A DNA stretch of 63,384 nt, counting the filler, from Theionarchaea archaeon (lineage in GTDB: Archaea; Methanobacteriota_B; Thermococci; Methanofastidiosales; SZ-28-30), in the NCBI GenBank assembly GCA_018992565.1. It is 5 parts of 5 records of this genome, joined end to end, with 100 filler letters (N's around TTAATTAATTAA, not from the genome) between each part and the next. Parts side by side here need not be neighbours in the genome. Positions count along the whole stretch, not along the records: positions 26,577 to 58,254 come from JACVGW010000019.1; 4 more parts are not named here. One strand, written 5' to 3'. Below, piece after piece: positions 4,669-58,355 of the stretch. The stretch's first letter is position 1. Each line of letters starts with the position of its first letter. Both the position numbers and the translations under genes were made by a program. The notes beneath the pieces are model-generated. The model worked only from the letters and a program-made list of their open reading frames with translations. It did no database searches and was not told the DNA's origin.

Positions 4669-4677
4669 GGGATTTTG

Positions 4678-6039: not shown

Positions 6040-6044
6040 GTGAT

Positions 6045-8753: not shown

Positions 8754-8891
8754 AGTTGATTCCGGGCGATTCCTGTGAAGGTGGTGACCAACTCTGATGC
8801 AGATTTTTGTCACATTCGTAATCCTGCACCTGCAGTCGCTGAACCCCNNNNNNNNNNNNNNNNNNNNNNNNNNNNNNNNNNNNNNNNNNNN

Positions 8892-8903
8892 TTAATTAAT
8901 TAA
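8892..8903. other. Artificial scaffold linker
   Basis: TTAATTAATTAA (stops in all frames) inside an N run. Confidence 0.97.
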
Positions 8904-8947
8904 NNNNNNNNNNNNNNNNNNNNNNNNNNNNNNNNNNNNNNNNNNNN

Positions 8948-15742: not shown

Positions 15743-15758
15743 GAAATCACCTCCATCA

Positions 15759-17102
15759 CTAGAGAGAGCATGAACCTGAGGGGTCCAGGCTTTCTCCCTG
15801 CACTCCTCTCTCCTCAGCAAAAGCTTTGAGGTCCTCCTGCAGGCTTTGATAGACTGCTTGTTGTCTGCATATCCGCTCGCGGACAGCACCTTTGTTCTCG
15901 AATATTTCAGCAAGACAGCCCCCCCGACAGATAGGTAGAAGGCTGCACATCCTGCATTCCTGCACTGAGAACGGATCTCTCAACATTACATCAAAATAGA
16001 ACTGGTTGAATTCCGGTTCTGAATTCTCTGGATTGATTCTGCCTACTGAATTCTCCGCGAAGGGCAGCTGGATGTTGCACTTGAACAGTCGCAGAAAGGG
16101 ATCTATGACAAAATTCGAATACCTCTGGGCTCTGCATGCGCCCTGGCATGAAGGCCTGTCCTTTTTTGCCACAGTAATGTTCATGGATCTGGCCACACTA
16201 TAGAGACGGTCTGCCGCAAGAGTTCCCTCCACATCTGGCATGCAGTAGTTGTACGACGAACAGGCAGGAGACGTTTTGAACACGGGTGTAATATTGAGTG
16301 ATATGTCAGCAAAGCCTTCCTTCTTCAGGAATTCAAAAAAAGACACAATATGATACCTATTTGTTTCATCCAAATTAACACGGATCTTGATTTTCAGACC
16401 ATTATCAGTCACACAATGTAGTCCCTCAATAATGTCTTCAAACGTGCCTTTCCCGTTCTTGTACATTCTTCTCTGATCATGTATTTCCTGTGGACCATCC
16501 AAGACTACCAGGAACCCACAATTATATTGAGCCAGGTCTTCAACAATTTTTTCAGTGAATAATGTCCCATTGGTAACTGCACTCATGAAAAAGCCTTTGT
16601 TATTCTCCTCACACCACCTGCTCAATTCTTCTGCCAGGTTCAGATTTGCAGGCATATTCAACAGTGGCTCTCCACCGAAGAGTGACACTCTCAGCTCCGT
16701 ACTGCTTCCACTCTCCACCAGGTTCTGTATGAATTTCACAGTACACGCCACTGATCTTTCGTCCATTTTCTTGTTTTCTATCTCCCCTTTTCCCTCGTAG
16801 CAGTACGTGCAGGCCAAGTTGCAGGCGTACGTCGTGACAACCTCCACCGTCGTTGAGAGAGTGCAGTATTTCGAACGCTCATACATCAGCTGATACACAT
16901 CCTGCTCGTTCAGCTCATCTTCAACGATTATATCATTATCAGTAAAGGCATGTATAGACTGCTCATCCAAAAGGTTGACCTCATTTTTTTCAAGGATATT
17001 CCTGATCTCAGAATCCACCAAGAAGATAGACCCTCTTAAAGTATTAAACAGGATGTATTTCCCGTTGTAAGGAAAGAACACATTATAGTGCGATGACTTC
17101 AT
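15759..17102 (-). CDS. Radical SAM/SPASM enzyme
   Basis: ATG at 17102 after SD GAGGTG; CNLACTYC, FGGEPLL, CRA...FKC...CRMCSLLPICRGGC...C. Confidence 0.92.
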   Translation of the reverse strand: MKSSHYNVFFPYNGKYILFNTLRGSIFLVDSEIRNILEKNEVNLLDEQSIHAFTDNDIIVEDELNEQDVYQLMYERSKYCTLSTTVEVVTTYACNLACTYCYEGKGEIENKKMDERSVACTVKFIQNLVESGSSTELRVSLFGGEPLLNMPANLNLAEELSRWCEENNKGFFMSAVTNGTLFTEKIVEDLAQYNCGFLVVLDGPQEIHDQRRMYKNGKGTFEDIIEGLHCVTDNGLKIKIRVNLDETNRYHIVSFFEFLKKEGFADISLNITPVFKTSPACSSYNYCMPDVEGTLAADRLYSVARSMNITVAKKDRPSCQGACRAQRYSNFVIDPFLRLFKCNIQLPFAENSVGRINPENSEPEFNQFYFDVMLRDPFSVQECRMCSLLPICRGGCLAEIFENKGAVRERICRQQAVYQSLQEDLKAFAEERGVQGESLDPSGSCSL

Positions 17103-17422
17103 GGAACACCTCACTTGCATCTCTTGACTCCTTCTCTTTGTTGCAATGAGAATCGAGACATTATATAAGGGTTTCGATTCACAGCTATTCAAATCACGAA
17201 ATTGTCTCTGCTACCCATTAATTGTGTCGGAATGAAGGAGAGAGCACCATATTCATCCTGTCTTCACAGACTTCCCCACAGGGACAATGAGATAGAGACT
17301 TCATATCAGGTTGCAGCGTGAATTGCCAGATTCTTGCCTGCTCCTGCAGGAGGCTGAAGATGGTTGTTCTGTCTCAAGAGTGCTGCAGGGATATTTATAA
17401 ATCTCATTTTCCACACCCATTC

Positions 17423-17706: not shown

Positions 17707-17750
17707 NNNNNNNNNNNNNNNNNNNNNNNNNNNNNNNNNNNNNNNNNNNN

Positions 17751-17762
17751 TTAATTAATTAA
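17751..17762. other. Artificial scaffold linker
   Basis: TTAATTAATTAA inside an N run. Confidence 0.97.
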
Positions 17763-17806
17763 NNNNNNNNNNNNNNNNNNNNNNNNNNNNNNNNNNNNNN
17801 NNNNNN

Positions 17807-19081: not shown

Positions 19082-20167
19082 TCACCTATCTGTACAGCAG
19101 AAACATGGATCAATGCTGGCCAGCGTAATGGGAACATCACCCAGAGTGTCACCCTGCAGCATCACCGGAACTGCCTGTACATTTGCATATGTGGGAGCTC
19201 TAATCTTCACTCTCTCAGGATAGAATGTTCCATTAGACCTGACATAGTGGAATACTTCTCCCCGGGGAGCTTCGTATCTGCCCACTCCTTCACCAGGAGG
19301 GATCTGCTTCACCTTGACAGCTATCTCCCCTCCTGACAGCTCTCTGAGAGCTGTCACTGCCTGTCTGATGATTTTCACAGATTCAATAATTTCAAGAAGT
19401 CTGACTTTTGCCCTTGCCATGTTGTCTTCCTCGTCCAGTACAATTTTCTCGAAGTCCACCTTATCATAGGCAAGATGAGGATCATCTTTCCTCACATCCA
19501 CAGCATACCCTGACGCCCTGGCCAGAGGACCTACCGTACACAGCCGCCTGGCATCCTCTCTGGGCAGGATACCTGTTCCCACAAGGCGTGCCTTTATGGT
19601 CCTGTTTCTCAGGAAAGAGTCAATGTAGTACTCAGTCCTGCGCTCAACCACATCCAGTGCAGTCAGCAGCCCAGGGATGTGCTTTTCAGTAATATCCTTC
19701 CTGCATCCTCCTACAGTATTCCATGCATAGTGGTTTCTGTTGCCTGTAATAATCTCCAGCTGATCCAGAACAAATTCCCTATCTCTCCATATGTACATGA
19801 ATAACGTCTCAATCCCTATTATTTCAGCAGCTATTCCAGCCCACAGCAGGTGAGAATGAATCCTTTCCAGCTCAGCTATGATCATCCTCGAGTAGTTTGC
19901 TCTTTCAGGTACAGTAACGTTGGCAATGTCCTCCACTGCCTGCGTGAAAGCCACAGGATGGGACATGGAACAGATGCCGCAGATCCTCTCTACCAGCAGT
20001 ATATCCTGCTCATAGGTCTTTCTCTCTGCCAGTTTCTCTATGCCTCTGTGGTTATATCCCATAGCAATGTCCACATTGACCACTTTCTCTCCTTCTGCAT
20101 GCACTCTCAGGCGTTCAGGTTCTGCCAGAGCCAAATGCTGAGGTCCAAATTGCACAACAACATCCAT
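19082..20167 (-). CDS. mbhL: Group 4 [NiFe] hydrogenase large subunit
   Basis: GYNHRGIEK, ERICGIC (L1) and DPCFCCTDR (L2); all four Ni-Fe cysteines are present. Confidence 0.93.
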   Translation of the reverse strand: MDVVVQFGPQHLALAEPERLRVHAEGEKVVNVDIAMGYNHRGIEKLAERKTYEQDILLVERICGICSMSHPVAFTQAVEDIANVTVPERANYSRMIIAELERIHSHLLWAGIAAEIIGIETLFMYIWRDREFVLDQLEIITGNRNHYAWNTVGGCRKDITEKHIPGLLTALDVVERRTEYYIDSFLRNRTIKARLVGTGILPREDARRLCTVGPLARASGYAVDVRKDDPHLAYDKVDFEKIVLDEEDNMARAKVRLLEIIESVKIIRQAVTALRELSGGEIAVKVKQIPPGEGVGRYEAPRGEVFHYVRSNGTFYPERVKIRAPTYANVQAVPVMLQGDTLGDVPITLASIDPCFCCTDR

Positions 20168-20169
20168 GG

Positions 20170-20589
20170 TTAAAACCTCCTCAGGGGATATTCAGTATAA
20201 TCATCAGGCAGGAACAGGTGACGGGGATCGGGATGGTTGACTACGGTAATACCCATCATTTCCATGGCTTCTCTCTCGTACCAGGCCGCGGACGGATAGA
20301 TATCAGATATGGTCTCAATCCTGGGATTTCCCCGGGGAGCTGATGTCTTCAGACTCACCTGGAGGGGATGAAGTTCAAAGTGATAGACGAGTTCCAGCTC
20401 CTCGCCCAGGTCTACAGAAGTGATCACCGAAAGGTGGCCTCCCATATCCTGGAAGAGCTTGACTGCCTGTCTGTGAGACCCATTTCGCACCTTAGAAAAT
20501 ACCCTATTTCTCCGAGCCAGAGTGAACTCCAGCACATCTTCTCTGAGATGAGTTCTCAATGTCTCTTCCAGTTCTGAAGCAGTGACCAT
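20170..20589 (-). CDS. mbhK: Hydrogenase NuoC-like subunit
   Basis: ISDIYPSAAWYEREAMEMMGI...HPD...YPLR. Confidence 0.88.
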   Translation of the reverse strand: MVTASELEETLRTHLREDVLEFTLARRNRVFSKVRNGSHRQAVKLFQDMGGHLSVITSVDLGEELELVYHFELHPLQVSLKTSAPRGNPRIETISDIYPSAAWYEREAMEMMGITVVNHPDPRHLFLPDDYTEYPLRRF

Positions 20590-21018
20590 CTACTCACCCC
20601 ACAATGCATTGAGCGCAGTGACCACTCCATGCAGAATGGCCTGAGGTCTCGGTGGACATCCAGGAATGTATGCTGCCACCGGGATCACCTTATCTGCAGG
20701 GCCGTATGATGCGTATGTCTCATTGAAAATTCCTTTCGTAATTGCACAGGAGCCAATAGCTACAGCAGCCTTTGGTTCCATGGTCTGTTCATAGAGTCGC
20801 TTCAGCACATCTCTCATTTTTAGTGAGATGATTCCCGTCACCACAATAATGTCTGCATGACGAGGATTTGGCTTCAGTACACCACCGAACCGTTCCACAT
20901 CAAATCGAGGAGCGAGAGCTGCCAGGATTTCAATATCACAATTATTACATGATCCGCAGCTCACGTGGAGTAGCCAGGGAGATTTCTTCCGACAGTAGTT
21001 GACCATTTTATCCAGCAT
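20590..21018 (-). CDS. mbhJ: Hydrogenase small subunit (NuoB-like)
   Basis: CGSCNNCDIE, PRHADI, GSCA and IPGCPPRP. Confidence 0.92.
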   Translation of the reverse strand: MLDKMVNYCRKKSPWLLHVSCGSCNNCDIEILAALAPRFDVERFGGVLKPNPRHADIIVVTGIISLKMRDVLKRLYEQTMEPKAAVAIGSCAITKGIFNETYASYGPADKVIPVAAYIPGCPPRPQAILHGVVTALNALWGE

Positions 21019-22826
21019 TAAACCACTCTCCACAAATATATGATCACCACTATAAGAGTGAATACCACCCAGAACACGTAGTTCTGCAGCAGTCCGCTGT
21101 GTTCAGATTTCAGGTACCTGTAAAATCGATCGAGCGGAGTTATGATGCCATAATAAAGGTTTGAACCCGAAATATTAACGTAGTAGTCTTCTTCACCACA
21201 GATATATATGTCATCTCTGGCACCAGCCTTTGCCTCTGGTTCGGGTGCCAGTGCTTTCCCCGTCCTCAAGGTCAAAACCACGAAGACCAGGAGAACCAGC
21301 AATACCAGTGATATCATAACAGGACTCCAGAAGGCATACTCAAGGTTCAGCCCAAGGTTATAGGCACCTACATCCACAGGGATACCCAGGACAGCAGAAG
21401 AGGCTTTCTCCACCAGGGTGAGAGGCAGCTGGGGGTAAATGCCAAACACAATACAGGTTACTGCAAGGATACCCATGGGGATCTTCATCAGGAGAGGAAC
21501 GTCTTTCACCTCTCTGTACTCCTCCTTGAGTTGACCCAGGAACACAGAATCCAGAGCCTTCAGGAATGAACTCAAGGTGCCCACACTGGCGAGGATTAAG
21601 ACTACTGTGAAGAAGTAGTACTCTTTCTGGTAGGTACCCACATAGAGCATCCACTTGCTGACGAACCCGTTAAAGGGAGGAACTCCTGAGATGGCCAGTG
21701 CCCCTATGAAAAAGCAGAATGTGGTAAAGGGCATTTTCTTGGAGAGTCCGCCCATCCTATCCAAGTCCCATGTACCAATCCGGTAAAAGACGGCCCCTGC
21801 ACACAGAAAGAGGAGCCCTTTGTACACTGCATTGTTCATCAAGTGGAACAGCCCTCCCGAAATTCCCAGAGGTGTAGCCAGGCCAATACCTGCCATGATA
21901 TAGCCCAACTGGGAGACTGCGTGATAGGACAGCAGCCGTTTGAAATCATGCTGCACAAGAGCCATCATGACGCCGATAAAGGCTGTTATTACACCGAAGG
22001 TGGCAATCATGGGGCTGGTAGCTTCCATAGCATCAAAGACGAAGTACAGGACACGGGCGAAAAGATAGACGCCTGCCACCTTGAAGGTCCCTGCCAGGAG
22101 CATACCTGTGGGAGTGGGAGCTGCAGGGTAGCTGTCAGCAGCCCAGAAATGCAGGGGTACAATTCCTGCCTTGAATCCGAATCCCACCACAAAGAAGGCC
22201 ATTGCAACAATGTCCACAGACGACATGGCGATCTTTGACATGAGGTCAACCATGTTCAATGTCTGGTACTGGGCATACAGCAGTGCGACGCCAAACAGGA
22301 TGAACGTGGATATCACGCCACCCAGTGTCAGTAATTTGAACCCTGCTTCTGCTGAATCCGATTTCCTGTGATACGCCACCAGAGCATAGGTGGAAACTGA
22401 CATGATCTCAAAGAAGACATACAGGTTGAACATGTCTCCTGTGAGGATGACGCCTGAAATTCCTGCAATCTGGAGGCAGAACAAGGTGTAAAATTTCCCT
22501 CTGCGAGCATCTTTCCTCATGTAGGGGACAGCATACACTGCAGAGAAGGTGGCCATCCCTGCTACGACGAGAGCTGCAAACAGAGACAGTGCGTCAACAT
22601 ACAGGGTAATACCATAGGGAGGGCTCCTGTTGCCCAGGGCATACACTATAGTATCGCCTGACAGAACGGGGGAAATCATGGTCAGTCCACATGCCAGGCT
22701 GCCCACAAATGCCAGGAAGGGTATGTAATCCCGCGCCCGTCCTGACACGAGACCCACAAGGGGTGTTATGAATGCTGCAGACAGAGGCAGCAGAACCATG
22801 AAGATAGGTGCATGTTCAGTAATCAT
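21018..22826 (-). CDS. mbhH: MrpD/NuoM-like antiporter subunit fused to an MbhI-like C-terminal module
   Basis: DMFNLYVFFEI, KAGIVPLHFW, DFKRLLSY and GVPPFNGFVSK; tail FWSP...IYICGEE...EHSGLLQNYV. Confidence 0.88.
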   Translation of the reverse strand: MITEHAPIFMVLLPLSAAFITPLVGLVSGRARDYIPFLAFVGSLACGLTMISPVLSGDTIVYALGNRSPPYGITLYVDALSLFAALVVAGMATFSAVYAVPYMRKDARRGKFYTLFCLQIAGISGVILTGDMFNLYVFFEIMSVSTYALVAYHRKSDSAEAGFKLLTLGGVISTFILFGVALLYAQYQTLNMVDLMSKIAMSSVDIVAMAFFVVGFGFKAGIVPLHFWAADSYPAAPTPTGMLLAGTFKVAGVYLFARVLYFVFDAMEATSPMIATFGVITAFIGVMMALVQHDFKRLLSYHAVSQLGYIMAGIGLATPLGISGGLFHLMNNAVYKGLLFLCAGAVFYRIGTWDLDRMGGLSKKMPFTTFCFFIGALAISGVPPFNGFVSKWMLYVGTYQKEYYFFTVVLILASVGTLSSFLKALDSVFLGQLKEEYREVKDVPLLMKIPMGILAVTCIVFGIYPQLPLTLVEKASSAVLGIPVDVGAYNLGLNLEYAFWSPVMISLVLLVLLVFVVLTLRTGKALAPEPEAKAGARDDIYICGEEDYYVNISGSNLYYGIITPLDRFYRYLKSEHSGLLQNYVFWVVFTLIVVIIYLWRVV

Positions 22827-23173
22827 TCTCTCAACCCCCTGATCTCTGTAATATCCAGGGTGCCATAATGGCGGTACAGGACAATCGCGATACTCAGAGC
22901 AAGAGCAGTGACACTGAGTCCGATGACGATGCTGGTCAGCACCAGCGCCTGGGGCAGAGGATCCACCATAACCACTGTCTCTGAGGTGATATCAGGCAGA
23001 ACCTCAATAGGAGGCGATCCACCCTGAACGTACCCTGTGGCAATAAGGAAGTATTGAACAGCATAATCCATCAGACTCAATCCTACGACAATTTTGATCA
23101 GATTCTTCTTCACCATGACTGCGTACAATCCAATGGCAAACACAGCGACGCAGACAATATAATCGACATTCAT
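22823..23173 (-). CDS. mbhG: MrpC-like subunit
   Basis: KKNLIKIVVG and DPLPQALVLTSIVIG. Confidence 0.9.
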   Translation of the reverse strand: MNVDYIVCVAVFAIGLYAVMVKKNLIKIVVGLSLMDYAVQYFLIATGYVQGGSPPIEVLPDITSETVVMVDPLPQALVLTSIVIGLSVTALALSIAIVLYRHYGTLDITEIRGLRE

Positions 23174-23598
23174 GGGGGGCTCCTCCTCATGTTGTTAAAT
23201 ATGGCTGTCAGCTCTGTTCCCACCTTTATACCAATTGCTACGTAGATTGGACCCAGAATACCTGCACTGAGCAGAGTACCTGGCGTTCCAAGTGAAACAG
23301 CATTCCACAAAAAGTTGCCTCCTTTCACTATGCCAATACACCCGAGGCCAATGAAGCAGAGGGCTGCCACACTTTCCAGGGCAGTCATCAATGATTCCGG
23401 GATTTTCAACGTACCAACACCCAGATAGAGCAGGATGATACTGGAGGCAATGATAGTACCTCCCTGAAACCCACCTCCAGGTGTCAGATGGCCGTGGACG
23501 AAGATATACACCCCGTACACAAAGGCCAGGGGGAAAACCATGCGGGCTATACTCTTTACAATAACACTGGGTTCACGAGGATCGTCATTCTTCTCCAT
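23170..23598 (-). CDS. mbhF: MrpB-like subunit
   Basis: HGHLTPGGGFQGG. Confidence 0.9.
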   Translation of the reverse strand: MEKNDDPREPSVIVKSIARMVFPLAFVYGVYIFVHGHLTPGGGFQGGTIIASSIILLYLGVGTLKIPESLMTALESVAALCFIGLGCIGIVKGGNFLWNAVSLGTPGTLLSAGILGPIYVAIGIKVGTELTAIFNNMRRSPP

Positions 23599-23866
23599 CG
23601 TTCTCCCTCCTTTTTTTCCAGAATAATGCTGCCACTCCTGTGGTGGCAGTAAAGAGAACAGTGACCTCTCCCAGGGTATCATACCCTCTATAGTCCAGCA
23701 CAATGTTGGTCACCAGGTTGGTAGCACCTGCCTCTTCAACACCTTCTTTGAGGTAGTGTTCTCCAACCCCAATAGAGTGGTCTCCGAATTCGTTGACATT
23801 GGTGACAGTGAAAACCAAAACGGAAATGAGCAATCCCAGGAGGAGGTAGGTCAGTGCGCGTTTCAT
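23585..23866 (-). CDS. mbhE: MbhE-like subunit
   Basis: GATNLVTNIVLDYRGYDTLGEVTVLF. Confidence 0.88.
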   Translation of the reverse strand: MKRALTYLLLGLLISVLVFTVTNVNEFGDHSIGVGEHYLKEGVEEAGATNLVTNIVLDYRGYDTLGEVTVLFTATTGVAALFWKKRRENDGEE

Positions 23867-24099
23867 TCTCCCGACCTCCGGGTATGGTTAATAGCCAGGA
23901 GCAGGATGAATGTGGATAGAGCTGCCCCAATGGCAACTTCTGTCATGGCTACATCTGGAGCTTGCAACTGGTAAAAGAGCAGGGCCAGGCACAGGCTGCA
24001 CATGCCCAGAGAGACAGCTGTATATATCAGGTCTTTGAACTCCACAGCCATCAGTGCACTGGCAACAAATACCACCAGCAGGATGAGATGTGAGATCAT
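23863..24099 (-). CDS. mbhD: MbhD-like subunit (DUF4040-like)
   Basis: LQAPDVAMTEVAIGA. Confidence 0.88.
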   Translation of the reverse strand: MISHLILLVVFVASALMAVEFKDLIYTAVSLGMCSLCLALLFYQLQAPDVAMTEVAIGAALSTFILLLAINHTRRSGE

Positions 24100-24422
24100 T
24101 CAAATTCCTCCTTGAAAGCATCATAACTTCCAATTTTCATCCGGGTTCCTGATCTGTATGCAGCCCTGGCTATGGCGTGGGCAGAGGTCGGGTTACCCAG
24201 GACGATGAAAACAATGATGAGAATAGCCTTGATTGCCACCTCTCCCTGCATGAGAAGTGCCACACCCAGAAGAGTGCACATGGCACCCAGTGTCGTACAC
24301 TTGGTAGCTGCATGCATACGGGTGAACATATCAGGAAGTCGAAGCAATCCAATGGCACCTACTAGGAGAAAGAAGGTGCCTATTGTGATGAGAACATCTG
24401 CTATGAACGTCACTCCTGTCAT
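24096..24422 (-). CDS. mbhC: MrpG-like subunit
   Basis: GLLRLPDMFTRMHAATK and PTSAHAIARAA. Confidence 0.9.
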   Translation of the reverse strand: MTGVTFIADVLITIGTFFLLVGAIGLLRLPDMFTRMHAATKCTTLGAMCTLLGVALLMQGEVAIKAILIIVFIVLGNPTSAHAIARAAYRSGTRMKIGSYDAFKEEFE

Positions 24423-24682
24423 AGTCCTCCCTCCAAATATCGCGCTATGGCAATAACAGCGATGAAACTCAGCAATGCGTAGATAATTGCTACATCTATC
24501 AACCATGTTCTATTATAAATAACACCCAGAATAACCAGGAGAGCAGTCGTGATAGTAGTAGCAGCATCCAGAGCGACAACCCGGTCCCCTGCTGTAGGAC
24601 CTTTGACAACCCTCAAAAACGAGAGCAAGAACGCAAAGGTAATGACAGACACTACAGCCTGTAGAAAAGAAAATTCCATCAT
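24419..24682 (-). CDS. mbhB: MrpF-like subunit
   Basis: RVVKGPTAGDRVVALD. Confidence 0.9.
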   Translation of the reverse strand: MMEFSFLQAVVSVITFAFLLSFLRVVKGPTAGDRVVALDAATTITTALLVILGVIYNRTWLIDVAIIYALLSFIAVIAIARYLEGGL

Positions 24683-25170
24683 GGAAACACCTTGTTCAAG
24701 AATCTCATGAACCGGCCAGTAATAATCTCGGCAGCTTCCTGCGGCTCACGGGTCTGAATGTTCAGCCAGTGCACATAAAAATTGTCTCCCAGAACGTCCA
24801 GCGTAAGGGTTCCTGGCGTTAATGTTATTGAATTTGCCAGGAGCGTCTTTCCATAGTCTGACTGCAGAGACACTGGCACCCTGACAATTCCTGGGTTGAT
24901 AGGCATTTTCGGATGGAGTACCCGGTAGGCCACATCCAGATTGGACTTGATAATCTCCCAGAGGAGAGCAGGGATATACACCACAAAGTAGAACACTCTC
25001 CTGGGGTGAAGACTGACAGCAGGAAACAGGTTCCTGGACAGGACTGCCACTATGAGGGCAGCAAGTACTCCCACCAGAAGAGGAGGATACCCTTGCTCCT
25101 GTATTTCAGACCAGGTCAGAAGGACCCACAGAACTACTGTAGCAAAGAACGCAGAGAGACATTGCCGCAT
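24679..25170 (-). CDS. mbhA: MrpE-like subunit
   Basis: SNLDVAYRVL...PGIV and LANSITLTPGT. Confidence 0.9.
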   Translation of the reverse strand: MRQCLSAFFATVVLWVLLTWSEIQEQGYPPLLVGVLAALIVAVLSRNLFPAVSLHPRRVFYFVVYIPALLWEIIKSNLDVAYRVLHPKMPINPGIVRVPVSLQSDYGKTLLANSITLTPGTLTLDVLGDNFYVHWLNIQTREPQEAAEIITGRFMRFLNKVFP

Positions 25171-25174
25171 GGTT

Positions 25175-26353
25175 TCACCTCAAAACGTCTACCACTTTAG
25201 CGGAATCCTTTTCCACCCGTATCCCCACGTCAGCCAGTTGATTCCGCACTGAAGGGGTAACAAAGGGCATTGTCCCCAGGACAACGGGGATATCCTGTGA
25301 AGCCAGTGCAAAAGCTGCTGTCAGCATCCTTGGGTCTCTCCACCTGGGCATGAGGACAGTAAGGGCCTTCATGCCAAGGAGCTTTGCGGGTTCGCAACAT
25401 CCTGCATTTATGACACAGGGAAATTGAAATTCGCTCATCAAGGTGCATTGGTGGTCAGGATGTTCCAAGAGGTCACAGGTCAGATTCAACACCATGAATT
25501 TCTGGCTGACCAGCTGGTGGGCAATTGCATCAAGATCCCATGTGCTCTTCCCAGAAGCGCACCCCATGATTGCTACAACCCCTGTAATGAGACCAGAGTC
25601 CACTGCACGAGTAAGTGCGTCACTGTCCACGGGGTATCCAACTGCTACACGCCGGGGAGTGACTTTTCTGAAGGATGCCTGATCTCTCTTTGAGAAATTC
25701 TCTATCGCAGTCTCGCAGGCAGCAGTCACATCTCCACCCTGGTATACGTAATCTATCATGTCGCCAGCTTCTTCCAGGACGTCAATTCCACCCAGAAAGG
25801 GGATACCAAAGGTTGAAGCAGCTTCTGCTCCTTCACACAAAGCACCCACCAGGTTGATCCCCCTGGCAGTACGTTCTCTGGCCAGATCTCTCATTTTCTG
25901 ACTTCTGGCCTGCTTTATCATGTCTGGAGCATAGACGGTGGTAACGAGATTGACCGCGTCTTTCTGTAATACTCCCATACCGACCTCAATGTCGCGGGGC
26001 TTTTTCTGGTCGGAATGCCATTGGTTGACCAGAGTCTGCGAAGGCTCGAGTATGGAAGCACTGGCTTTCACCAGATCCTCAACAGTAATCCCTGCACCAT
26101 GAGTGTAGATCATTCTGTCAAGCGAAAGAGGTAAAGAGGTTCCCACCCCGTAGTCAGTCAATCCCTTGAGAACATGCAGTCCCAGGTTCACCATATTCAT
26201 ACTCTCCGCATCAATTCCACAGGCCCCTGCATGGGGCTCTTCATCAAAAGGGTTTATGATACATGGCCCTAAGTCACAGTACGTGCACATCATGCCGGCA
26301 GAAGCCAGTTCATTCTGGGGCATCTGAGCTTGTAATCGATCCATTATTTTCAT
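25175..26353 (-). CDS. Shortened, divergent CooS/HCP (CODH-fold) Fe-S protein
   Basis: B-cluster CTYCDLGPC...GACG, GINLVGALC and GVVAIMGC blocks are collinear with CooS, but it is only 392 aa. Confidence 0.75.
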   Translation of the reverse strand: MKIMDRLQAQMPQNELASAGMMCTYCDLGPCIINPFDEEPHAGACGIDAESMNMVNLGLHVLKGLTDYGVGTSLPLSLDRMIYTHGAGITVEDLVKASASILEPSQTLVNQWHSDQKKPRDIEVGMGVLQKDAVNLVTTVYAPDMIKQARSQKMRDLARERTARGINLVGALCEGAEAASTFGIPFLGGIDVLEEAGDMIDYVYQGGDVTAACETAIENFSKRDQASFRKVTPRRVAVGYPVDSDALTRAVDSGLITGVVAIMGCASGKSTWDLDAIAHQLVSQKFMVLNLTCDLLEHPDHQCTLMSEFQFPCVINAGCCEPAKLLGMKALTVLMPRWRDPRMLTAAFALASQDIPVVLGTMPFVTPSVRNQLADVGIRVEKDSAKVVDVLR

Positions 26354-26476: not shown

Positions 26477-26520
26477 NNNNNNNNNNNNNNNNNNNNNNNN
26501 NNNNNNNNNNNNNNNNNNNN

Positions 26521-26532
26521 TTAATTAATTAA
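26521..26532. other. Artificial scaffold linker
   Basis: TTAATTAATTAA inside an N run. Confidence 0.97.
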
Positions 26533-26576
26533 NNNNNNNNNNNNNNNNNNNNNNNNNNNNNNNNNNNNNNNNNNNN

Positions 26577-26863
26577 TTGAAACTCTGGAAGACGTCAGAA
26601 GAACCTTCGAAGTGGCAGCAGAACTTGACACTCCCAATGTGGCTTTCCACATTTTTACACCCTATATTGGAACTCAGGCTTTTGCATCCCCTGAGGCATT
26701 CGGGTTGACCATTTTGTCTGACAACCCCGAGGACTTTGATAAGAACAAGGAACCAGTGGTAAAAACGCAATATTTGACCTCAGAGCAAATCATGGACTTG
26801 TATTGTGAGAGTTTTGGTATATCTTTGAGAAAGGGACGTCAAAGAGTGTGGAGGACACGCTAG
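26577..26863 (+). CDS. B12-binding-type radical SAM protein, C-terminal part
   Basis: ETLEDVRRTFEVAAEL...FHIFTPYIGT...PEAFGL is typical of class B rSAM C-termini. Confidence 0.65.
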
Positions 26864-28343: not shown

Positions 28344-30917
28344 CTATTGCAGAATCTTCTGGAAAAGCTCATATTCAAGGTTATAAATCTCCATGGTAAT
28401 CTCTTTCTGATCCTCACTCAAATTGTCAGGATCTGTCCCATTGTACCCCATGTAGCCTGGCTGACCATTGAATCCATCTCTAAACACAGTGGAAACGGTA
28501 CAGAGCACGAAGTAGCCACGTCCATATTTGACCTTCGCCAGTATAACCCTGTCGCCCACAGTCTTTACTGCCTCCCCGCCTTTAATCGAGGGGCCCCAGG
28601 GGACAAGAGGACCTTCTTCTTCAGCATCCTCCGGTTTCGCAATCTCCTCAATGTCCAGCCCGAATTCTGCAATGAGGTTCAATCCAAGAACCCGGGCCTG
28701 GTCCACCATCATCAACACGTGTCCGCCTCTTTCCAGGTGGTTCTTCAACACCTCAATGTCCTCATGAGAGAAATTCTCCTCCACAGGATCCGCAATGACC
28801 ACAATCTTCCCTTTTTCTGTGCAGTCTTCCAGAGAGCACTCAATGGAAGGGACCAACCCCACTCTCTGGGTCCATATGAGAAACACAGTATAGTCTCCCT
28901 GGGAAGTTCCACTGTTGACAATTTCTGAAGAGTGGCTCCCATCAAAGCAAACTGTGTCTTCCCAGTTGTAGAACTTTGGTGGTATTCCCTGGTACAGGTC
29001 TGGGTTACATACAGCAAAACACAAACTGCTGCCCAGTCCAACCATACACACCACCAGCATCAGAGCACCAAGTCGCTTTTTCCTTTCAATCCCGGAAAAG
29101 ACGTACATTCCAGCAGCCATCACCACAATTCCTGCTGTCAGGAATAGAGTCCGCATGAAGGGAATTTCATTCTTGTGGTTCAGCCACTCCATACTCCCAA
29201 TAACCAGTTGATCTGATCCACCAAAGAATATCCTGAAGTTGGATATAGTAGTACTGTCAGCAAAAGCTACCACCCGTCCTTTTCCATACTCTACAGCCAC
29301 ACATTGATGGAAGATGCCCCAATCCCGGTCTGTGGCCAGGACTGGCAAGTCTCTTCGTGTCTCTCTGAAGAACCCGGTAGATGCGTATTCTCCTGGCTCA
29401 GCACTCAACCCATACCCGGGGATAACCCGTCCCACAGTCAGAGGAGCGGAAATGCTGCATGAGGTCAGAAAATCATACTTCGGCATGTATTTGGCGCAGG
29501 GATGTGCAATGTCACCTCTCTCATACACGGAGAGCCTTCCTTCTGAATTGTTGACACTGTCAAACACGAATTCAATTCCGAAATGCCTGGTAATCTCGTT
29601 AAGGGAAGTACTGGTTCCAGCAAAATTACTGTGATCCCCGACAACAAAGAGGCCTCCACCATTCTTGACGAAGTTCACAATTGCAGTGACCTCATTCTGG
29701 CTGTACATATTGGGGGTCTTCAGGATGAGGATATCATAGTTGTTCAACATGTCAGCTGTTATCTCATCACTGACGACATCTGGTGTAGCCTTGGTTATGG
29801 TTTCAGCAGGATTCCAGGTGACAAACGCATTGTTCATTACCCGATCCACCTCATACGTCACCTTCAACCATTCAATCATGGAGTATGCATTGTAGGTGGA
29901 TTCTGTCCCGTACCAGTGCGTGTCCATGACGAGAGATGAAGGCTCCCAGGTCGAATGAATCTCGTCCACCAGGACCCTCCCCTGCTTCTCACCCCCTGTG
30001 GGTTGTGCCATTATAGTCCCCGTCAGGAGAAGTGCACCCACCAGAACCGTCAGACACACAATGGTATTCACTTTCTCAAGGCCCATTCGCGGAAATTCTA
30101 CGGTCAGCTCCCACCGATATAAGAGGAGTATCACGACTACCAGAGGGACAAAAGTCCAGAATAGCCACCATGGACTGAAAAAGATGTTGGCGAATTTTGT
30201 TAGAGCATCCGTTCCCAGGTCACCTGCAAAATAGTACTCCAGAAGTACCACATACCTGAACAGCATGTACACAGCACTCAGGCCAACAATCCCCAGAGCA
30301 CGTTGTCCTGCCTGTTCCAGTGTCTCAGATTTCAGCAACAGGAATATGAGGACAGGCACAAGGATGAGAAGCAAAGGATACATTCCCAGAGTATCCCAGG
30401 TAGTGGGGAAGGGATAGACATCACCTGCTTCCTGTATGTAGACAGTTCCTCTCTCAAAGGCTGCAGGGATCCCCATCAGCCTGACAAAAGGATAGACAAT
30501 GTACGACATGACTCCTGCAGCATGGCCTGACGGTATCACTATCATGTATATGCCCATGACAGCTGCCTGCATCCCCATGATGAGGCCACTCACTGTAAAC
30601 CCAAGCCACATATACCAGGTGGGCCGAACCAACAGCAGGAAGAACCCAATACTCAGCAGGATAAATCCAGTATTATACGGGAAGGGAATGAAGACTGCTG
30701 CACATAGACTGGGAAGGATTAAGACTCCCCATTTTCGTTCTGGCTGATACTCGTGTCCCCTGTACAGAAGAACACCTGATACCACTGTGATAATCAAGGC
30801 AATGGCAGCGGGGATTACAGCACTCTCACCCTTGAATATGGTGAGAAGCCACAGCCAGAACGCTGTTGAAGATAGCAGTACTACTCCTGTTATCCAGTGT
30901 TGCACTTCTTGGTTCAT
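28344..30917 (-). CDS. Large membrane protein: multi-TM region with an archaeosortase-like segment plus two GATase-like (GIFT/DUF4350-type) domains
   Basis: About 10 TM segments, then VLVDEIH...FVKNGGGLFVVGDH...YGKGRVVAFADS, two more TM, and FDGSH...LERGGHVL...YGRG. Confidence 0.7.
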   Translation of the reverse strand: MNQEVQHWITGVVLLSSTAFWLWLLTIFKGESAVIPAAIALIITVVSGVLLYRGHEYQPERKWGVLILPSLCAAVFIPFPYNTGFILLSIGFFLLLVRPTWYMWLGFTVSGLIMGMQAAVMGIYMIVIPSGHAAGVMSYIVYPFVRLMGIPAAFERGTVYIQEAGDVYPFPTTWDTLGMYPLLLILVPVLIFLLLKSETLEQAGQRALGIVGLSAVYMLFRYVVLLEYYFAGDLGTDALTKFANIFFSPWWLFWTFVPLVVVILLLYRWELTVEFPRMGLEKVNTIVCLTVLVGALLLTGTIMAQPTGGEKQGRVLVDEIHSTWEPSSLVMDTHWYGTESTYNAYSMIEWLKVTYEVDRVMNNAFVTWNPAETITKATPDVVSDEITADMLNNYDILILKTPNMYSQNEVTAIVNFVKNGGGLFVVGDHSNFAGTSTSLNEITRHFGIEFVFDSVNNSEGRLSVYERGDIAHPCAKYMPKYDFLTSCSISAPLTVGRVIPGYGLSAEPGEYASTGFFRETRRDLPVLATDRDWGIFHQCVAVEYGKGRVVAFADSTTISNFRIFFGGSDQLVIGSMEWLNHKNEIPFMRTLFLTAGIVVMAAGMYVFSGIERKKRLGALMLVVCMVGLGSSLCFAVCNPDLYQGIPPKFYNWEDTVCFDGSHSSEIVNSGTSQGDYTVFLIWTQRVGLVPSIECSLEDCTEKGKIVVIADPVEENFSHEDIEVLKNHLERGGHVLMMVDQARVLGLNLIAEFGLDIEEIAKPEDAEEEGPLVPWGPSIKGGEAVKTVGDRVILAKVKYGRGYFVLCTVSTVFRDGFNGQPGYMGYNGTDPDNLSEDQKEITMEIYNLEYELFQKILQ

Positions 30918-33469
30918 GATTGTGCCTCCTGAAAGTCAGTAATAATGTCACGCAGTAATTCTACATTACCCACCCAGATGGCTGCAAAGGTGGGCAGTCC
31001 CAGCCGGGACGGTTCCAGTGAATACTCCAGGTTCTCATCAAGCAGGAATCGGGAGTCTCCAATGAGGACTATGATTCCTTTGCCGTACTGCTTGCTGATG
31101 ATCAGGTCATACGTCTGGCCCAGATACGTCAGAGTAGCATACGACTTTGAGAGGTTGGTTCCACCTACAGGGTATGCTTCCATGAACTTGGGCTCATGCC
31201 AGTATTTGTCCAGGTTTTCCTGGGAGATTTCCGGGGTACGCCCATGTGTCTCAATAATCCAGGGGACAGGACCCAGAGGCACATTTCCTATATCCATTTC
31301 AACCCGTTGCAGAAGGGGCCTCAGAGCATCACGTTCTGCTGCTCCAGCTGACAGGATGAGGAGACCTCCCTGTTCCACAAAGGATATTATGTCATTCACT
31401 TCACCTGAGGAGTATCCCCTGGTAGGAGCAATTATCACCAGTATTCTGCCTTCTTTCAGTTGCGATGTGTCCTGGAGATACAGGGGTATGTAGTCATTTC
31501 GCAGGAAATTCTTGGTCAGTCCATCTACACTGTTGTCTTTGTATCCTCTGGTATTGAGAAGGTTGCAGTGAGCTGCATCAATCCAGGCAAGGACATCACT
31601 TTCTGGATGAGGTGTATCAATCAGCGAAGAGACGAACCCAGAGATGATCAAGGCTGCCAGAAGAACCACGAATATATGGCTTTCCAGCAGTCTCCTGCGT
31701 TCGAAGTAGAGCACACTGCCTGCACATATCAAGAACACGGCACTGGCCACCCAGGTCAGGGAGTATGGGATAGTATATGTATCTGTCAAGAAGTCCACGG
31801 AGTTCTCCATAAGTCTCCAGGTACTGGGTAGGGCTTCATTGAAACTGTATGAAGTATCTCCAAAGACCAGGACCTTCCCTTTTCCATAGGTATCTGCAGC
31901 TGCCAGGATAATGTCTCCCAGCTGCTCTCCGGATTCAAACTCCCTGTTTCCCAAGAACCCAGCTTCAAGAGGGTCAGGGTTATCAGAAAAGGCATACCGC
32001 CCTACCATCACGGGTTCAGCAGTCCCCGATACTGTCAAAGACGCACCCACAGAACCTGTGCGCACATCCTCAGAAGTCAGTCCCCAGGTAACAGCATGGG
32101 GCAGAAGCTCAGTTGAGGTCTGCCAGTGGTGTTGCATCCACTCTGCAGTGTCCATCTGTATCCTGATACCTGTCATAGAGAGGATATCATTCAGGTAGTG
32201 TCTCCCTGACTGGAAATCTACGAGACTGGCCATCATGTTGGTATGCTCCCCGAACACCAGGAGCCCCCCTCCTCTCTTGACAAAGGCATTCACAGCCTCT
32301 ATATCCTCAGCAGAAAGAGGGCTAGTTAGATTGGCCACCATAACTACATCAGCATCCTGTAAAGCATCTTTCAGTGAAGCAGATGTCTCATCAGTGAGTA
32401 TTTCCATCGTATACCCTCTCTCCTCAAAATACCACAGAGTAGCACCCAGCGTTATGCCCATGTCTCCCACCAGTGATTCACCTTCTTCAGGGAATTCTGG
32501 GATGTAAGAATCCATAGCGCAGTCCCGCTGATAGAATACTACCTTCCCCGGGCCCCCCTGGGTTACAAAGGGCAGCACTGTCAGGAATACCACCGATACC
32601 AGCAGTACCAGGAGAACTGCAGCGCGTCTAATATTCTGAGGGTTGACGGTACGGTAGGCCTCGACTTGTGGAATTCTCCATATTGAATAAAAGAACAGGC
32701 CTACCAGCAGGAAGAAGAGGGACAGCTGCAGCAGCGTGACCTGAGTGAGAGGATACAGGTCCAGCGAAGAAAAAACAAGACCGTACAGCAGCAGAGAGAG
32801 CATCCACAGAAGCACGGAACCGACTGCAAAATACACGAAAAAGAGCACCCTCCTGGGTTCTCCTCTCGCATTAAAGGCAAAGAGACCAGTTCCACACAGC
32901 AAAAAGTACAGCCACACCCAGAATCCACTGGCATCTGTGCCCAGTCTCATGTGTATACCACAAAGAGTGCCCATGAATCCACTGAACTGCAGCGATAGAG
33001 AGGATATTCCTCGTAAAACATATGGATTATACTGATGCACCAGAAATACTACAATAAACATCAGTGTACCTGCCACCACGGGAAGGCTGTACTGCTCCAA
33101 TCGTGAATCAGATATACTGGTTATCCCAATCACGAAAATTCCCACAGAGAGCATCCAGTACACTCGTGAAGATGTGGAAACCAATACAACAAAGGCTGCC
33201 ACCATCAAGACAAGCGACAGAGCCTTCTTTCTGTCTTCTGCATTTTCCCGTATCCTGGAGACAAGTGATCTGTTCACAGCTGAGAAAGGAAAAAGTGCCA
33301 GAAATACCAGTAATAACAGGACAAATCCGAAAAATCTTAGTGAACTCAATGTAAAGTGACCAATGACTGCAGAGATCAAGGTGAATGAGAAGGTCAACAG
33401 AATTGTCATAGACAGGAAATATACCATTTCTTTCTTGTTCGTTTTTTGAGGGGTTTCACGGTTCATCAC
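30914..33469 (-). CDS. Large membrane protein with the same architecture as its downstream partner
   Basis: About 10 TM segments, FVKRGGGLLVFGEH...YGKGKVLVFGD, two TM, then WIDAAH...FVEQGGLL...YGKGIIVLIGD. ATGA overlap with the next gene. Confidence 0.7.
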   Translation of the reverse strand: MMNRETPQKTNKKEMVYFLSMTILLTFSFTLISAVIGHFTLSSLRFFGFVLLLLVFLALFPFSAVNRSLVSRIRENAEDRKKALSLVLMVAAFVVLVSTSSRVYWMLSVGIFVIGITSISDSRLEQYSLPVVAGTLMFIVVFLVHQYNPYVLRGISSLSLQFSGFMGTLCGIHMRLGTDASGFWVWLYFLLCGTGLFAFNARGEPRRVLFFVYFAVGSVLLWMLSLLLYGLVFSSLDLYPLTQVTLLQLSLFFLLVGLFFYSIWRIPQVEAYRTVNPQNIRRAAVLLVLLVSVVFLTVLPFVTQGGPGKVVFYQRDCAMDSYIPEFPEEGESLVGDMGITLGATLWYFEERGYTMEILTDETSASLKDALQDADVVMVANLTSPLSAEDIEAVNAFVKRGGGLLVFGEHTNMMASLVDFQSGRHYLNDILSMTGIRIQMDTAEWMQHHWQTSTELLPHAVTWGLTSEDVRTGSVGASLTVSGTAEPVMVGRYAFSDNPDPLEAGFLGNREFESGEQLGDIILAAADTYGKGKVLVFGDTSYSFNEALPSTWRLMENSVDFLTDTYTIPYSLTWVASAVFLICAGSVLYFERRRLLESHIFVVLLAALIISGFVSSLIDTPHPESDVLAWIDAAHCNLLNTRGYKDNSVDGLTKNFLRNDYIPLYLQDTSQLKEGRILVIIAPTRGYSSGEVNDIISFVEQGGLLILSAGAAERDALRPLLQRVEMDIGNVPLGPVPWIIETHGRTPEISQENLDKYWHEPKFMEAYPVGGTNLSKSYATLTYLGQTYDLIISKQYGKGIIVLIGDSRFLLDENLEYSLEPSRLGLPTFAAIWVGNVELLRDIITDFQEAQS

Positions 33470-33763: not shown

Positions 33764-33820
33764 GCAACGTTTATAAATATAGGTTAATCCATATCTACAT
33801 AGAAAGAAGGAGGTGAATTG
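33764..33820 (+). promoter_or_regulatory. TATA box and strong SD for the TC-repeat gene
   Basis: CAACGTTTATAAAT, then AAGGAGGTGA 5 nt before ATG 33822. Confidence 0.7.
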
Positions 33821-33821
33821 A

Positions 33822-34238
33822 ATGGAAAAAAAGAGCGTTGTGATCCTGGCCCTGGTATCTGCCATAGCGTTATTTGTGGCAACAGCAGTCAGCGCCAGTT
33901 CCCTGACGGGTAGCCCTCTTTTCAACCTGAGAATGGAACAGCAGAGCAGCAAGATGAACTTCTTACCAACAGAGATCAATGGATTTACTTACACGTCAGA
34001 ATCAACATATTCCCTGGCCCTGGAGTTTTCACAGTGCTGTGCAGTGGTCCCCCTGGGACCAGAACCCACGAATCACCAGGTTCCATGTGAATGGACAGTC
34101 CAGACCTGTCCCCTCACCTGCCTGAGCACATGCCCGGAAACGTGCTACACATGCAACACATGCCTCGTAGAAACATGCCCCTATACCTGCAGTTTCACCT
34201 GTGGTGGATCTACCTGTGGCGATCCTCCTTGCGTGTAA
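33822..34238 (+). CDS. Secreted protein with a C-terminal Thr-Cys repeat (candidate modified-peptide precursor)
   Basis: Signal peptide MEKK+hydrophobic+VSA; 10 TC dipeptides; 14 Cys in total; has its own TATA, SD and T-rich terminator. Confidence 0.85.
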   Translation: MEKKSVVILALVSAIALFVATAVSASSLTGSPLFNLRMEQQSSKMNFLPTEINGFTYTSESTYSLALEFSQCCAVVPLGPEPTNHQVPCEWTVQTCPLTCLSTCPETCYTCNTCLVETCPYTCSFTCGGSTCGDPPCV

Positions 34239-34260
34239 TATTCCTCTTCTTTTCTTTTTT
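34239..34260 (+). terminator. Archaeal T-rich terminator
   Basis: TTCCTCTTCTTTTCTTTTTT immediately after the stop codon. Confidence 0.6.
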
Positions 34261-58254: not shown

Positions 58255-58298
58255 NNNNNNNNNNNNNNNNNNNNNNNNNNNNNNNNNNNNNNNNNNNN

Positions 58299-58310
58299 TT
58301 AATTAATTAA
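58299..58310. other. Artificial scaffold linker
   Basis: TTAATTAATTAA inside an N run. Confidence 0.97.
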
Positions 58311-58355
58311 NNNNNNNNNNNNNNNNNNNNNNNNNNNNNNNNNNNNNNNNNNNNC

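Follow-up and report, generated by a model that had tools for sequence, protein, structure and literature searches.

An unannotated family of small archaeal proteins with predicted export signals and acidic Thr-Cys repeat tails

The DNA analysed here (the window, 63,384 nt in full) consists of five contigs (C62, C64, C66, C67 and C116) of one metagenome-assembled genome (MAG) of a Theionarchaea archaeon, joined by N spacers. The MAG is 2.8 Mb long, in 154 contigs, and 88% complete. Our subject is a gene on contig C67 that encodes a 138-aa protein with an ATG start, referred to below as the target, and this protein ends in a tail of Thr-Cys repeats. It belongs to an undescribed and unannotated family of small archaeal proteins, here called the TC family, which are predicted from their N-termini to be exported and which carry acidic Thr-Cys repeat tails. 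We read these proteins, tentatively and with less than even confidence, as an exported, natively unfolded array of thiolates whose targets in sulfidic sediment would be thiophilic metals, metal sulfides or sulfur species.

A sequence-only reading of the window had described the target as a protein in three parts (a signal peptide, a leader-like block and a tail of ten Thr-Cys pairs with Cys every 3-5 residues), and this anatomy is borne out both in the target (Table 1) and in its family. The tail peptide quoted there is present exactly. The target has 14 Cys in total, with 12 in the final 50 residues and 10 of those 12 after Thr, and the tail Cys follow one another at spacings of 7, 4, 4, 4, 3, 3, 5, 4, 4, 5 and 5. 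Ten Thr-Cys pairs were reached in none of 100,000 shuffles of the tail. Three Thr codons (ACC, ACA, ACG) and two Cys codons (TGT, TGC) are used there, and no exact DNA repeat within the tail is longer than 8 nt. The periodicity is thus maintained at the protein level and is not the product of slippage, as the sequence-only reading had argued. The ending GSTCGDPPC is common to the target and its closest relatives (P0002-P0005 and P0009). At the other end of the protein, MEKK, 18 uncharged residues and VSA|SS fit a Sec signal cut by signal peptidase I, as judged heuristically by the n/h/c and -3/-1 rules.

The target is a real gene, since a word-indexed search found 28 relatives and an exhaustive profile search found 247 representative clusters (50% identity level) at E<=0.001, of which 237 also passed E<=1e-10. 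The profile covered only the first 70 residues, i.e., signal and block, and was built from an alignment of 56 sequences (A3). The proteins it found are 59-281 aa long, and in the 150 matches listed the module is N-terminal in nearly all, lying further inside only where the predicted protein carries extra N-terminal residues. Existing family models do not recognise the target: a Pfam scan at E<=10 gave no family, its sole match being a sub-threshold one to GRP on the signal peptide, and an NCBIfam scan gave 0 families at E<=10, precursor models included. The named relatives among the 28 come from MAGs labelled 'Theionarchaea archaeon' and 'Candidatus Methanofastidiosia archaeon', where they are annotated as hypothetical proteins. 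One of them (P0014) carries the precomputed label PF27846, and in our Pfam scan P0014 and six others gave nothing above threshold. Full-text literature searches (supplements not included) returned no description of the family.

The target's own genome holds eight family paralogues on eight contigs, with conserved heads and variable tails. This is exactly the pattern, a conserved leader followed by variable cores, that the sequence-only reading had proposed to look for, and with eight copies and hypervariable tails the gene is neither single-copy nor conserved along its full length. A metagenome collection added 75 family loci, which dereplicated to 49 locus groups. Together with one locus from a genome collection and the eight own loci, these make up the 57 locus groups used for all neighbourhood counts below. 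Several metagenome loci contain tandem arrays, the largest with seven genes in ~8 kb (L029).

In the species-representative genomes, the family was found in 1 of 34 of the order, 1 of 101 sampled from the class and 1 of 133 of the phylum, and the genome was always the target's own. Two genomes of the same genus (91% and 84% complete) and one of the same family gave no family match even at E<=10. A scan of a genome-contig collection found a single family locus (L016), whose source (G101) is a 0.6-Mb fragment with one TC gene and two SPASM proteins. No relative of the family was found in a viral-contig collection, so a virus-borne origin is unsupported within the collection scanned.

Tails were surveyed in 144 proteins, of which we kept 128 after dropping eight whose motif variants (RIE/RMEx) the search pattern had missed and eight with tails shorter than 30 aa. 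A Cys-rich tail is present in 127 of the 128 (median 20% Cys, with maxima of 39 Cys and 36 Thr-Cys), and the sole exception appears frameshifted. Other apparently frameshifted or split members, with head and tail in different frames or the tail out of frame, were seen at L037:4313-4833, in protein P0006 and at L100:10643-10852. A further locus, L041:18198-18614, joins the usual signal and conserved block to a Cys-free tail of 'WPPDT' repeats.

The N-termini are alike throughout the family. Among 272 of them, a small-x-small motif, mostly V-x-A, stands 3-9 residues ahead of the PL motif in 268, K or R is present at the start in 96%, and the uncharged run has a median length of 21. A canonical Sec-type signal therefore appears to be universal across the family by rule-of-thumb criteria, which would imply export and cleavage. 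The signal is followed by a block of ~35 residues with the consensus TPLYTLRMEQASSKMNFLPTxxNGFTYTTExGYxL, in which P32, L33, R37, M38, S42 and F47 are invariant, as is Y57 in alignment A3. After the block, the family alignments show a linker, often with CC..PL, and then a (T-C-x-x)n tail whose length is free. Median pairwise identity is 0.62 in the block versus 0.31 at tail positions other than T/C.

The tails are rich in Cys and Thr and free in number of repeats. Thr precedes 75% of Cys in 81 distinct tails, and of the 1227 Cys-Cys gaps in these tails 574 are of 4 residues, 250 of 5 and 181 of 3. In a set of 221 tails, Cys makes up 20.4% of residues, Thr 19.4%, Pro 8.5%, D+E 10.9% and K+R 2.0%; aromatic residues (Y+W+F) account for ~8%. 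The net charge is negative in 98% of these 221 (median -6), which makes them suited to binding cations and not to acting as cationic membrane-active peptides. Repeat number varies freely, with 1 to 39 Cys, and the Cys count is even in 109 of 230 mature regions, i.e., there is no parity constraint, and this counts against a fully disulfide-paired fold.

The boundary between conserved head and variable tail is also sharp at the DNA level. In a tandem triplet (L069), a single base is all that differs across the promoter-proximal DNA and the initial ~275 nt of coding sequence. Divergence then begins abruptly, inside the tail only, through substitutions and in-frame indels. Structure prediction points to a tail without a fold: AlphaFold2 (AF2), given a 32-sequence alignment, produced a confident helix at residues 2-27 only, with a predicted local distance difference test (pLDDT) score below 45 in the tail and a mean of 50. 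The ESM Atlas model had a pLDDT of 0.48 and gave no usable feature match, its structure matches all having template-modelling (TM) scores below 0.4, and a PDB profile search with alignment A1 returned 0 matches.

Most family genes look monocistronic from their flanking sequences. Of 73 distinct family upstream regions, 57 have a Shine-Dalgarno-like motif in the final 20 nt ahead of the start codon, and a run of at least five T follows within 60 nt of the stop in 62 of 67 family genes. The TATA-like element of the target (Table 1) also precedes the L069 paralogues, at the same distance. Only 12 of the 73 upstream regions match the strict pattern TTTA[TA]A[TA]A, with a median distance of 51 nt between match and start, so a promoter common to the whole family is not established.

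The sequence-only reading had also tied the target to radical S-adenosylmethionine (rSAM) enzymes, and this link is not supported. Since the window is a concatenation of contigs (N runs at 8848-8947, 17707-17806, 26477-26576 and 58255-58354, among others), apparent neighbourhoods across the spacers are not physical. The rSAM-like ORFs (open reading frames) at 4669-7337 and 14345-17210 lie on C62 and C64, and none lies on C67 (window 26577-58254). Over the 57 locus groups, an rSAM gene is found within 5 kb in seven: one of the eight own paralogues and six of the 49 foreign groups. The own genome is so full of rSAM genes that 14% of its sequence and 12% of its ORFs have one within 5 kb. The observed proximity is thus at chance level, and we rejected it as evidence of coupling. 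What looks like an rSAM neighbourhood is an artefact, created by the joining of contigs and by the abundance of rSAM genes, for the own genome gives 40 matches to a single rSAM/SPASM protein query and 75 ORFs at E<=1e-10 with a hidden Markov model of the rSAM family, mostly clustered. The two same-genus genomes give 15 and 12 matches to this rSAM family and have no TC gene, and the same-family genome gives 0.

The rSAM proteins that do neighbour family genes resemble peptide maturases. Their best NCBIfam matches are CefB 'Cys-every-fifth', TIGR04463, PapB and SCIFF, all far below threshold (the best CefB maturase score is 160 against a cut-off of 600). CxxxC-repeat peptides are reportedly predicted rSAM/SPASM targets (attributed to Haft and Basu 2011), and NCBIfam has, by name, a 'CXXX-repeat target' rSAM family, TIGR04115. 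The best TIGR04115 score in the own genome is 102 bits against a cut-off of 350, from a gene on another contig, and no control genome exceeded that cut-off. No curated CXXX-repeat, SCIFF, CefA or bufferin model matches.

Only one own paralogue lies near an rSAM gene, at a distance of 732 bp, on contig C30 (locus L013, G000:C30:24464-33008). The rSAM cluster there (L013:65-8609) includes a PqqD-domain protein (65-757), five rSAM-like genes and a 46-aa ORF (2237-2377) which, with its Cys-rich C-terminus, looks like the cluster's own precursor. The TC gene of this locus is a separate unit, beyond a gene on the opposite strand. For the target itself, the last 99 nt of contig C132 (G000:C132:4734-4832) are identical to the first 99 nt of C67 (window 26577-26675), an assembler-style overlap that may join the two contigs. 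If it does, an rSAM-like ORF (C132:1434-2489) lies ~9.5 kb upstream of the target, behind five genes.

Other classes of modifying enzyme gave equally little. MNIO (PF05114) was found in 0 of 4 genomes (the own genome and three relatives), with a control found in Caulobacter, and DUF2063 was not searched on its own. LanC-like proteins (PF05147) were found in 0 of the same four genomes, a result to be read beside 0 of 14 control genomes. The own genome has a single YcaO gene (L101:1-1145, contig C46), cut by the contig end and not found in the three closest genomes. Its best matches are to the E. coli-type accessory factor, and its SagD-type score (TIGR03604) is 56.7 bits against a cut-off of 219.25. 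Encoded near it are an acetyltransferase, an MBL-fold hydrolase and a dehydrogenase-like protein, and no TC gene is among its neighbours. No YcaO occurs among the neighbours in the 57 locus groups.

What does recur beside family genes is a putative regulator. When all genes near family members in the 57 groups were clustered, the commonest neighbour (cluster 17, in 11 groups) was a ~370-aa cytoplasmic protein, often 150-430 bp from the family gene and variable in orientation. It has no Pfam or NCBIfam family, and its model (pLDDT 91) consists of two fused Lrp/AsnC-type modules, each a helix-turn-helix (HTH) plus RAM. The top Foldseek match was the siroheme decarboxylase NirDL (E 1e-8), followed by Lrp/AsnC regulators. 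There are ten own-genome paralogues of this protein (including L011:431-1519, L015:3946-5049 and L010:1523-2671), and one lies within 5 kb of two of the eight own TC genes, compared with 2.7% of the genome. Of the 34 genomes of the order, 10 carry it, and these include the two same-genus genomes in which TC genes are missing. Given this distribution and the tandem Lrp/AsnC fold, we rejected cluster 17 as a RiPP recognition element (RRE; RiPP stands for ribosomally synthesised and post-translationally modified peptide) or a maturase, and on its predicted structure we read it as a probable local regulator. Further recurrent neighbours are winged-helix regulators (HTH_24, HxlR/PadR), a DDE transposase and tetratricopeptide repeat (TPR) proteins. 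The transposase (cluster 116, e.g., L046:8040-9362) lies within 5 kb of family genes in two locus groups, with a third copy at 5.7 kb.

Under the reading that we prefer, the pre-protein would be exported by Sec and cut by signal peptidase after VSA (residue 25), releasing a product of ~113 aa. This product would carry the conserved block of ~35 aa in its N-terminal part and end in an acidic (Thr-Cys-x-x)n tail, interspersed with prolines and without a fold of its own. The block would be a pro- or docking segment common to all members. Outside the cell, the densely arrayed thiolates of the tail would bind thiophilic metal ions or species of metal sulfide or sulfur, in the manner of a metallothionein, and the adjacent Thr hydroxyls may support the thiolates. 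The number of repeats would set capacity, and paralogues would differ in capacity or specificity. Each gene would be its own transcription unit, often beside an Lrp/AsnC-type regulator. We base this reading on the universal Sec signal, the anionic and Lys-poor tails, the lack of Cys parity and of a fold, the free repeat number, the regulator neighbours, the lack of a linked modifying enzyme and the sediment habitat. Apo metallothioneins are likewise unstructured. The sequence-only reading had left the choice between a poly-thioether and a metal-binding product: metal binding now ranks first, and the thioether half has lost ground because no maturase is linked.

Several points weigh against a thiolate array. 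Metal or sulfur binding is something we infer for the tails, and signal cleavage is predicted by rule of thumb only. If the tail were simply a metal sponge, there would be no reason for the 35-aa block to be so strongly conserved or for Thr to be near-obligatory ahead of Cys, and both features look more like signals of recognition and chemistry. The thiolate reading also leaves the sharp head/tail boundary in the DNA unexplained, and a conserved head with a hypervariable tail is the classic signature of a RiPP or toxin precursor. The aromatic content of the tails is unlike that of classical metallothioneins, and no metal transporter, metallochaperone or metal-sensing regulator is among the recurrent neighbours in the 57 groups. 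The number of maturase-like rSAM/SPASM genes in the own genome is exceptional, which makes modification in trans possible.

A RiPP precursor modified in trans is a reading that we take seriously and yet consider unlikely. The block would then be the leader for rSAM/SPASM maturases encoded elsewhere, Cys sulfurs would be linked to Thr carbons in a poly-thioether ladder, and the product would leave through Sec. The conserved head and hypervariable Cys-rich tail, the multiple dispersed or tandem copies, the frequency of Thr before Cys and the dominant Cys spacing of 4 all agree with this, as do the lack of Cys parity and of a predicted fold. So do the 40 own-genome matches to the CefB/PapB/SCIFF-like rSAM/SPASM family, and bufferins are themselves Cys-rich RiPPs with a Sec signal, as described in PMC11626156. 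The rSAM genes near the C30 paralogue and in six of 49 foreign groups would also fit, but such proximity equals the 12-14% background, the C30 cluster has its own PqqD and its own Cys-rich ORF, and the rSAM gene nearest the target is the one that depends on C132 joining C67. Moreover, the same-genus genomes keep the rSAM family without a TC gene, no curated precursor or maturase model matches, and known ranthipeptides are far shorter than the longest tails here, which reach 170 aa and 39 Cys. The bufferin authors (PMC11626156) regard macrocyclised peptides as poor Sec substrates. Bolder, and in our view a little more doubtful, is the idea of giant Sec-routed archaeal RiPPs, the first such, in which the block would again be the leader and trans-encoded rSAM/SPASM enzymes would turn each Thr-Cys unit into a thioether or other Cys-derived cross-link, yielding secreted polycyclic ladders (up to ~36 rings) diversified by repeat indels. 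Thr-Cys is also a classic heterocyclisation site, and a YcaO enzyme could cyclodehydrate it to (methyl)oxazoline-thiazoline pairs. The presence of one YcaO gene in the own genome, not found in three relatives without the family, is a weak lead only, as the co-occurrence rests on one genome versus three; the gene is generic, sits at a contig end, scores far below the SagD-type cut-off and has no TC gene nearby, and no family gene has a YcaO as neighbour. We therefore consider an azol(in)e product very improbable.

Two readings dispense with a modifying enzyme. A secreted disulfide-rich toxin or archaeocin would have a prepro architecture, with a signal, a pro-block for processing and a mature part diversified against its targets, for which conotoxins and halocin-type precursors are the analogies. 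This would account for the conserved signal and pro-region beside a hypervariable mature part, the sharp DNA boundary, the tandem arrays and the patchy distribution (1 of 133 species genomes). We nonetheless hold it to be improbable, given tails that are of low complexity, free in length and strongly anionic, with no preference for even Cys numbers and, apart from the TC unit, no conserved Cys framework. Genes for immunity or export are not among the recurrent neighbours in the 57 groups, and extracellular disulfides would be unlikely to persist in a reducing habitat. The helix at residues 2-27, confidently predicted by AF2 and followed directly by the block in all members, could instead be an uncleaved anchor. 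The block would then dock to a conserved envelope component, with the Thr/Cys tail, which might be O-glycosylated, as a variable layer on the outside of the cell. The Thr content of the tail (19%) agrees with such a coat, and the target and two relatives adjoin a pair of membrane proteins with a GIFT domain, which is linked with glycan handling. However, this pair is found in only three of 57 locus groups, and the small-x-small motif that follows the helix in 268 of 272 N-termini points to cleavage, so a surface coat seems to us about as improbable as a toxin.

The pair in question (Table 1) adjoins a family gene in the target's own locus, L042 and L069, and a functional link to the target is possible but unproven. 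Apart from these two GldG/GIFT-like membrane proteins, the Pfam scan within ~14 kb of the target gave a short-chain dehydrogenase, a family-less 275-aa protein, a MatE transporter, an aminotransferase, a DNA glycosylase, an MFS transporter and an M20 peptidase, and no peptide-modifying enzyme among the annotated genes. The downstream genes (275-aa protein, MatE and aminotransferase) are syntenic in same-genus genomes at 73-90% amino-acid identity, and this synteny stops exactly at the TC gene. The TC gene and both 850-aa membrane proteins are missing from the syntenic place in two same-genus genomes, each of which has different genes there. At one such place (L104:2587-6084, G036:C16) the genes encode a secreted protein of 1165 aa and two paralogous membrane proteins of ~250 aa. 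Elsewhere in the window, on a neighbouring contig, 19082-26353 carries an Mrp/Mbh-type membrane-bound hydrogenase cluster (complex I-like, with Mnh antiporter subunits) and a gene of the prismane/CODH family.

Table 1. Features of the target gene and its adjoining membrane-protein genes, in window coordinates.
Feature	Position	Strand	Basis or remark
Coding sequence of the 138-aa Thr-Cys repeat protein, stop codon included	33822..34238	+	ORF reading, family searches
Shine-Dalgarno-like GGAGGTGA	33809..33816	+	6 nt upstream of ATG
TATA-box-like TTTATAAATA	33770..33779	+	~50 nt 5' of start codon; putative, by eye
T-rich tract TTTTCTTTTTT	34250..34260	+	12 nt past stop; putative, archaeal terminator-like
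Residues 1-25, predicted Sec-type signal peptide	33822..33896	+	MEKK, 18-residue hydrophobic core, VSA ahead of predicted cut
Residues 31-65, conserved block SPLFNLRMEQQSSKMNFLPTEINGFTYTSESTYSL	33912..34016	+	Family alignments
Residues 66-88, variable linker with semi-conserved CC..PL motif	34017..34085	+	Alignment A1
Residues 89-138, anionic (TCxx)n tail	34086..34235	+	12 Cys, 10 Thr-Cys pairs, terminal GSTCGDPPCV
Two paralogous ~850-aa polytopic membrane proteins, DUF4350/ABC_transp_aux (GldG/GIFT-like)	28344-30917, 30914-33469	-	Pfam; divergent from target

DNA of the target stretch is present in the 20 sequencing runs listed, which come from seven studies of marine, estuary, mangrove and soil/sediment metagenomes, and nine of these 20 may be the source sample. 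A metatranscriptome run (X20) contained a single 178-nt contig on 34004-34181 at a depth of 2.7, with one synonymous difference that is also present in a DNA run. This is a weak hint that the target is transcribed, and DNA carry-over is possible. In run X14, the sole match was a conserved piece of 41 nt that belongs to a relative.

Four known systems invite comparison. In the prochlorosin system, a single enzyme serves numerous precursors encoded at scattered sites, whose leader is conserved and whose cores are hypervariable. The TC family is similar in its multi-copy dispersed genes, highly conserved head and hypervariable Cys/Thr-rich tail, but it has a predicted signal peptide, its tails are periodic repeats rather than unrelated cores, and no LanM/LanC-like enzyme was detected in four genomes, though the search was also silent in 14 controls. 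Metallothioneins share with the TC tails a Cys content of ~20% in CxxxC/CxxC arrays, the lack of a stable apo fold, a variable repeat number and no Cys parity. Unlike them, the TC proteins have no Pfam metallothionein match, contain ~8% aromatics and almost no Lys, are predicted to be exported rather than cytosolic, and have a conserved non-Cys N-terminal block and an obligatory Thr before Cys.

The thioether peptides made by rSAM/SPASM enzymes (SCIFF/ranthipeptides TIGR03974, PapB NF047865, TIGR04115 and CefA/CefB NF038107) are alike in their Cys spacing of 3-5, a Thr often nearby and a conserved N-terminal segment, and the own genome is rich in distant relatives of their maturases. The Cys at every fourth residue of CXXX-repeat targets is matched by the TC tails (574 of 1227 gaps are of 4), although this is a resemblance only. 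Known rSAM/SPASM precursors are short, cytoplasmic and without a signal, whereas TC proteins are 59-281 aa long (138 in the target) with an obligatory predicted Sec signal. They also differ from ranthipeptides and CXXX-repeat targets in that no curated precursor model matches at E<=10, the maturases score far below cut-offs and there is no adjacency above background.

Bufferins (BufA1/BufA2) are MNIO-modified RiPP metallophores (PMC11626156). They combine a Sec signal with a small Cys-rich protein, a proposed extracytoplasmic role in metal binding and precursors that can exceed 200 aa with many Cys, all of which the TC proteins may share, their own Sec signal being predicted heuristically. Bufferins are defined by an adjacent pair of MNIO (PF05114) and DUF2063 and by membership of the DUF2282 or BUF_6/12Cys families. 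For the TC family, no MNIO was found in the own genome and three relatives, and there is no DUF2282 or BUF_6/12Cys match. Bufferins are bacterial and fold as small proteins, whereas the TC family is archaeal, repetitive and predicted to be unfolded. The family thus lies between bufferins and the CXXX-repeat/SCIFF-type rSAM targets, with metallothioneins further off, and it has the defining genetic features of none of them.

The TC family is an unannotated family of 247 clusters that, within the searches made, is confined to uncultured archaea of sulfidic sediment, with up to eight copies per genome and arrays of seven. We know of no exported metallothionein-like protein from archaea. One study connects Theionarchaea with mercury methylation (PMC11205478). 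Should the tails bind metals or metal sulfides, the family would be relevant to the acquisition or detoxification of thiophilic metals by anaerobic archaea in sediment. If they are instead modified by an enzyme, RiPP biology would extend to very long, Sec-exported, repeat-built products in a barely explored domain. Either way, the sharp boundary between a conserved head and a hypervariable tail makes the family a natural system for studying repeat-driven diversification.

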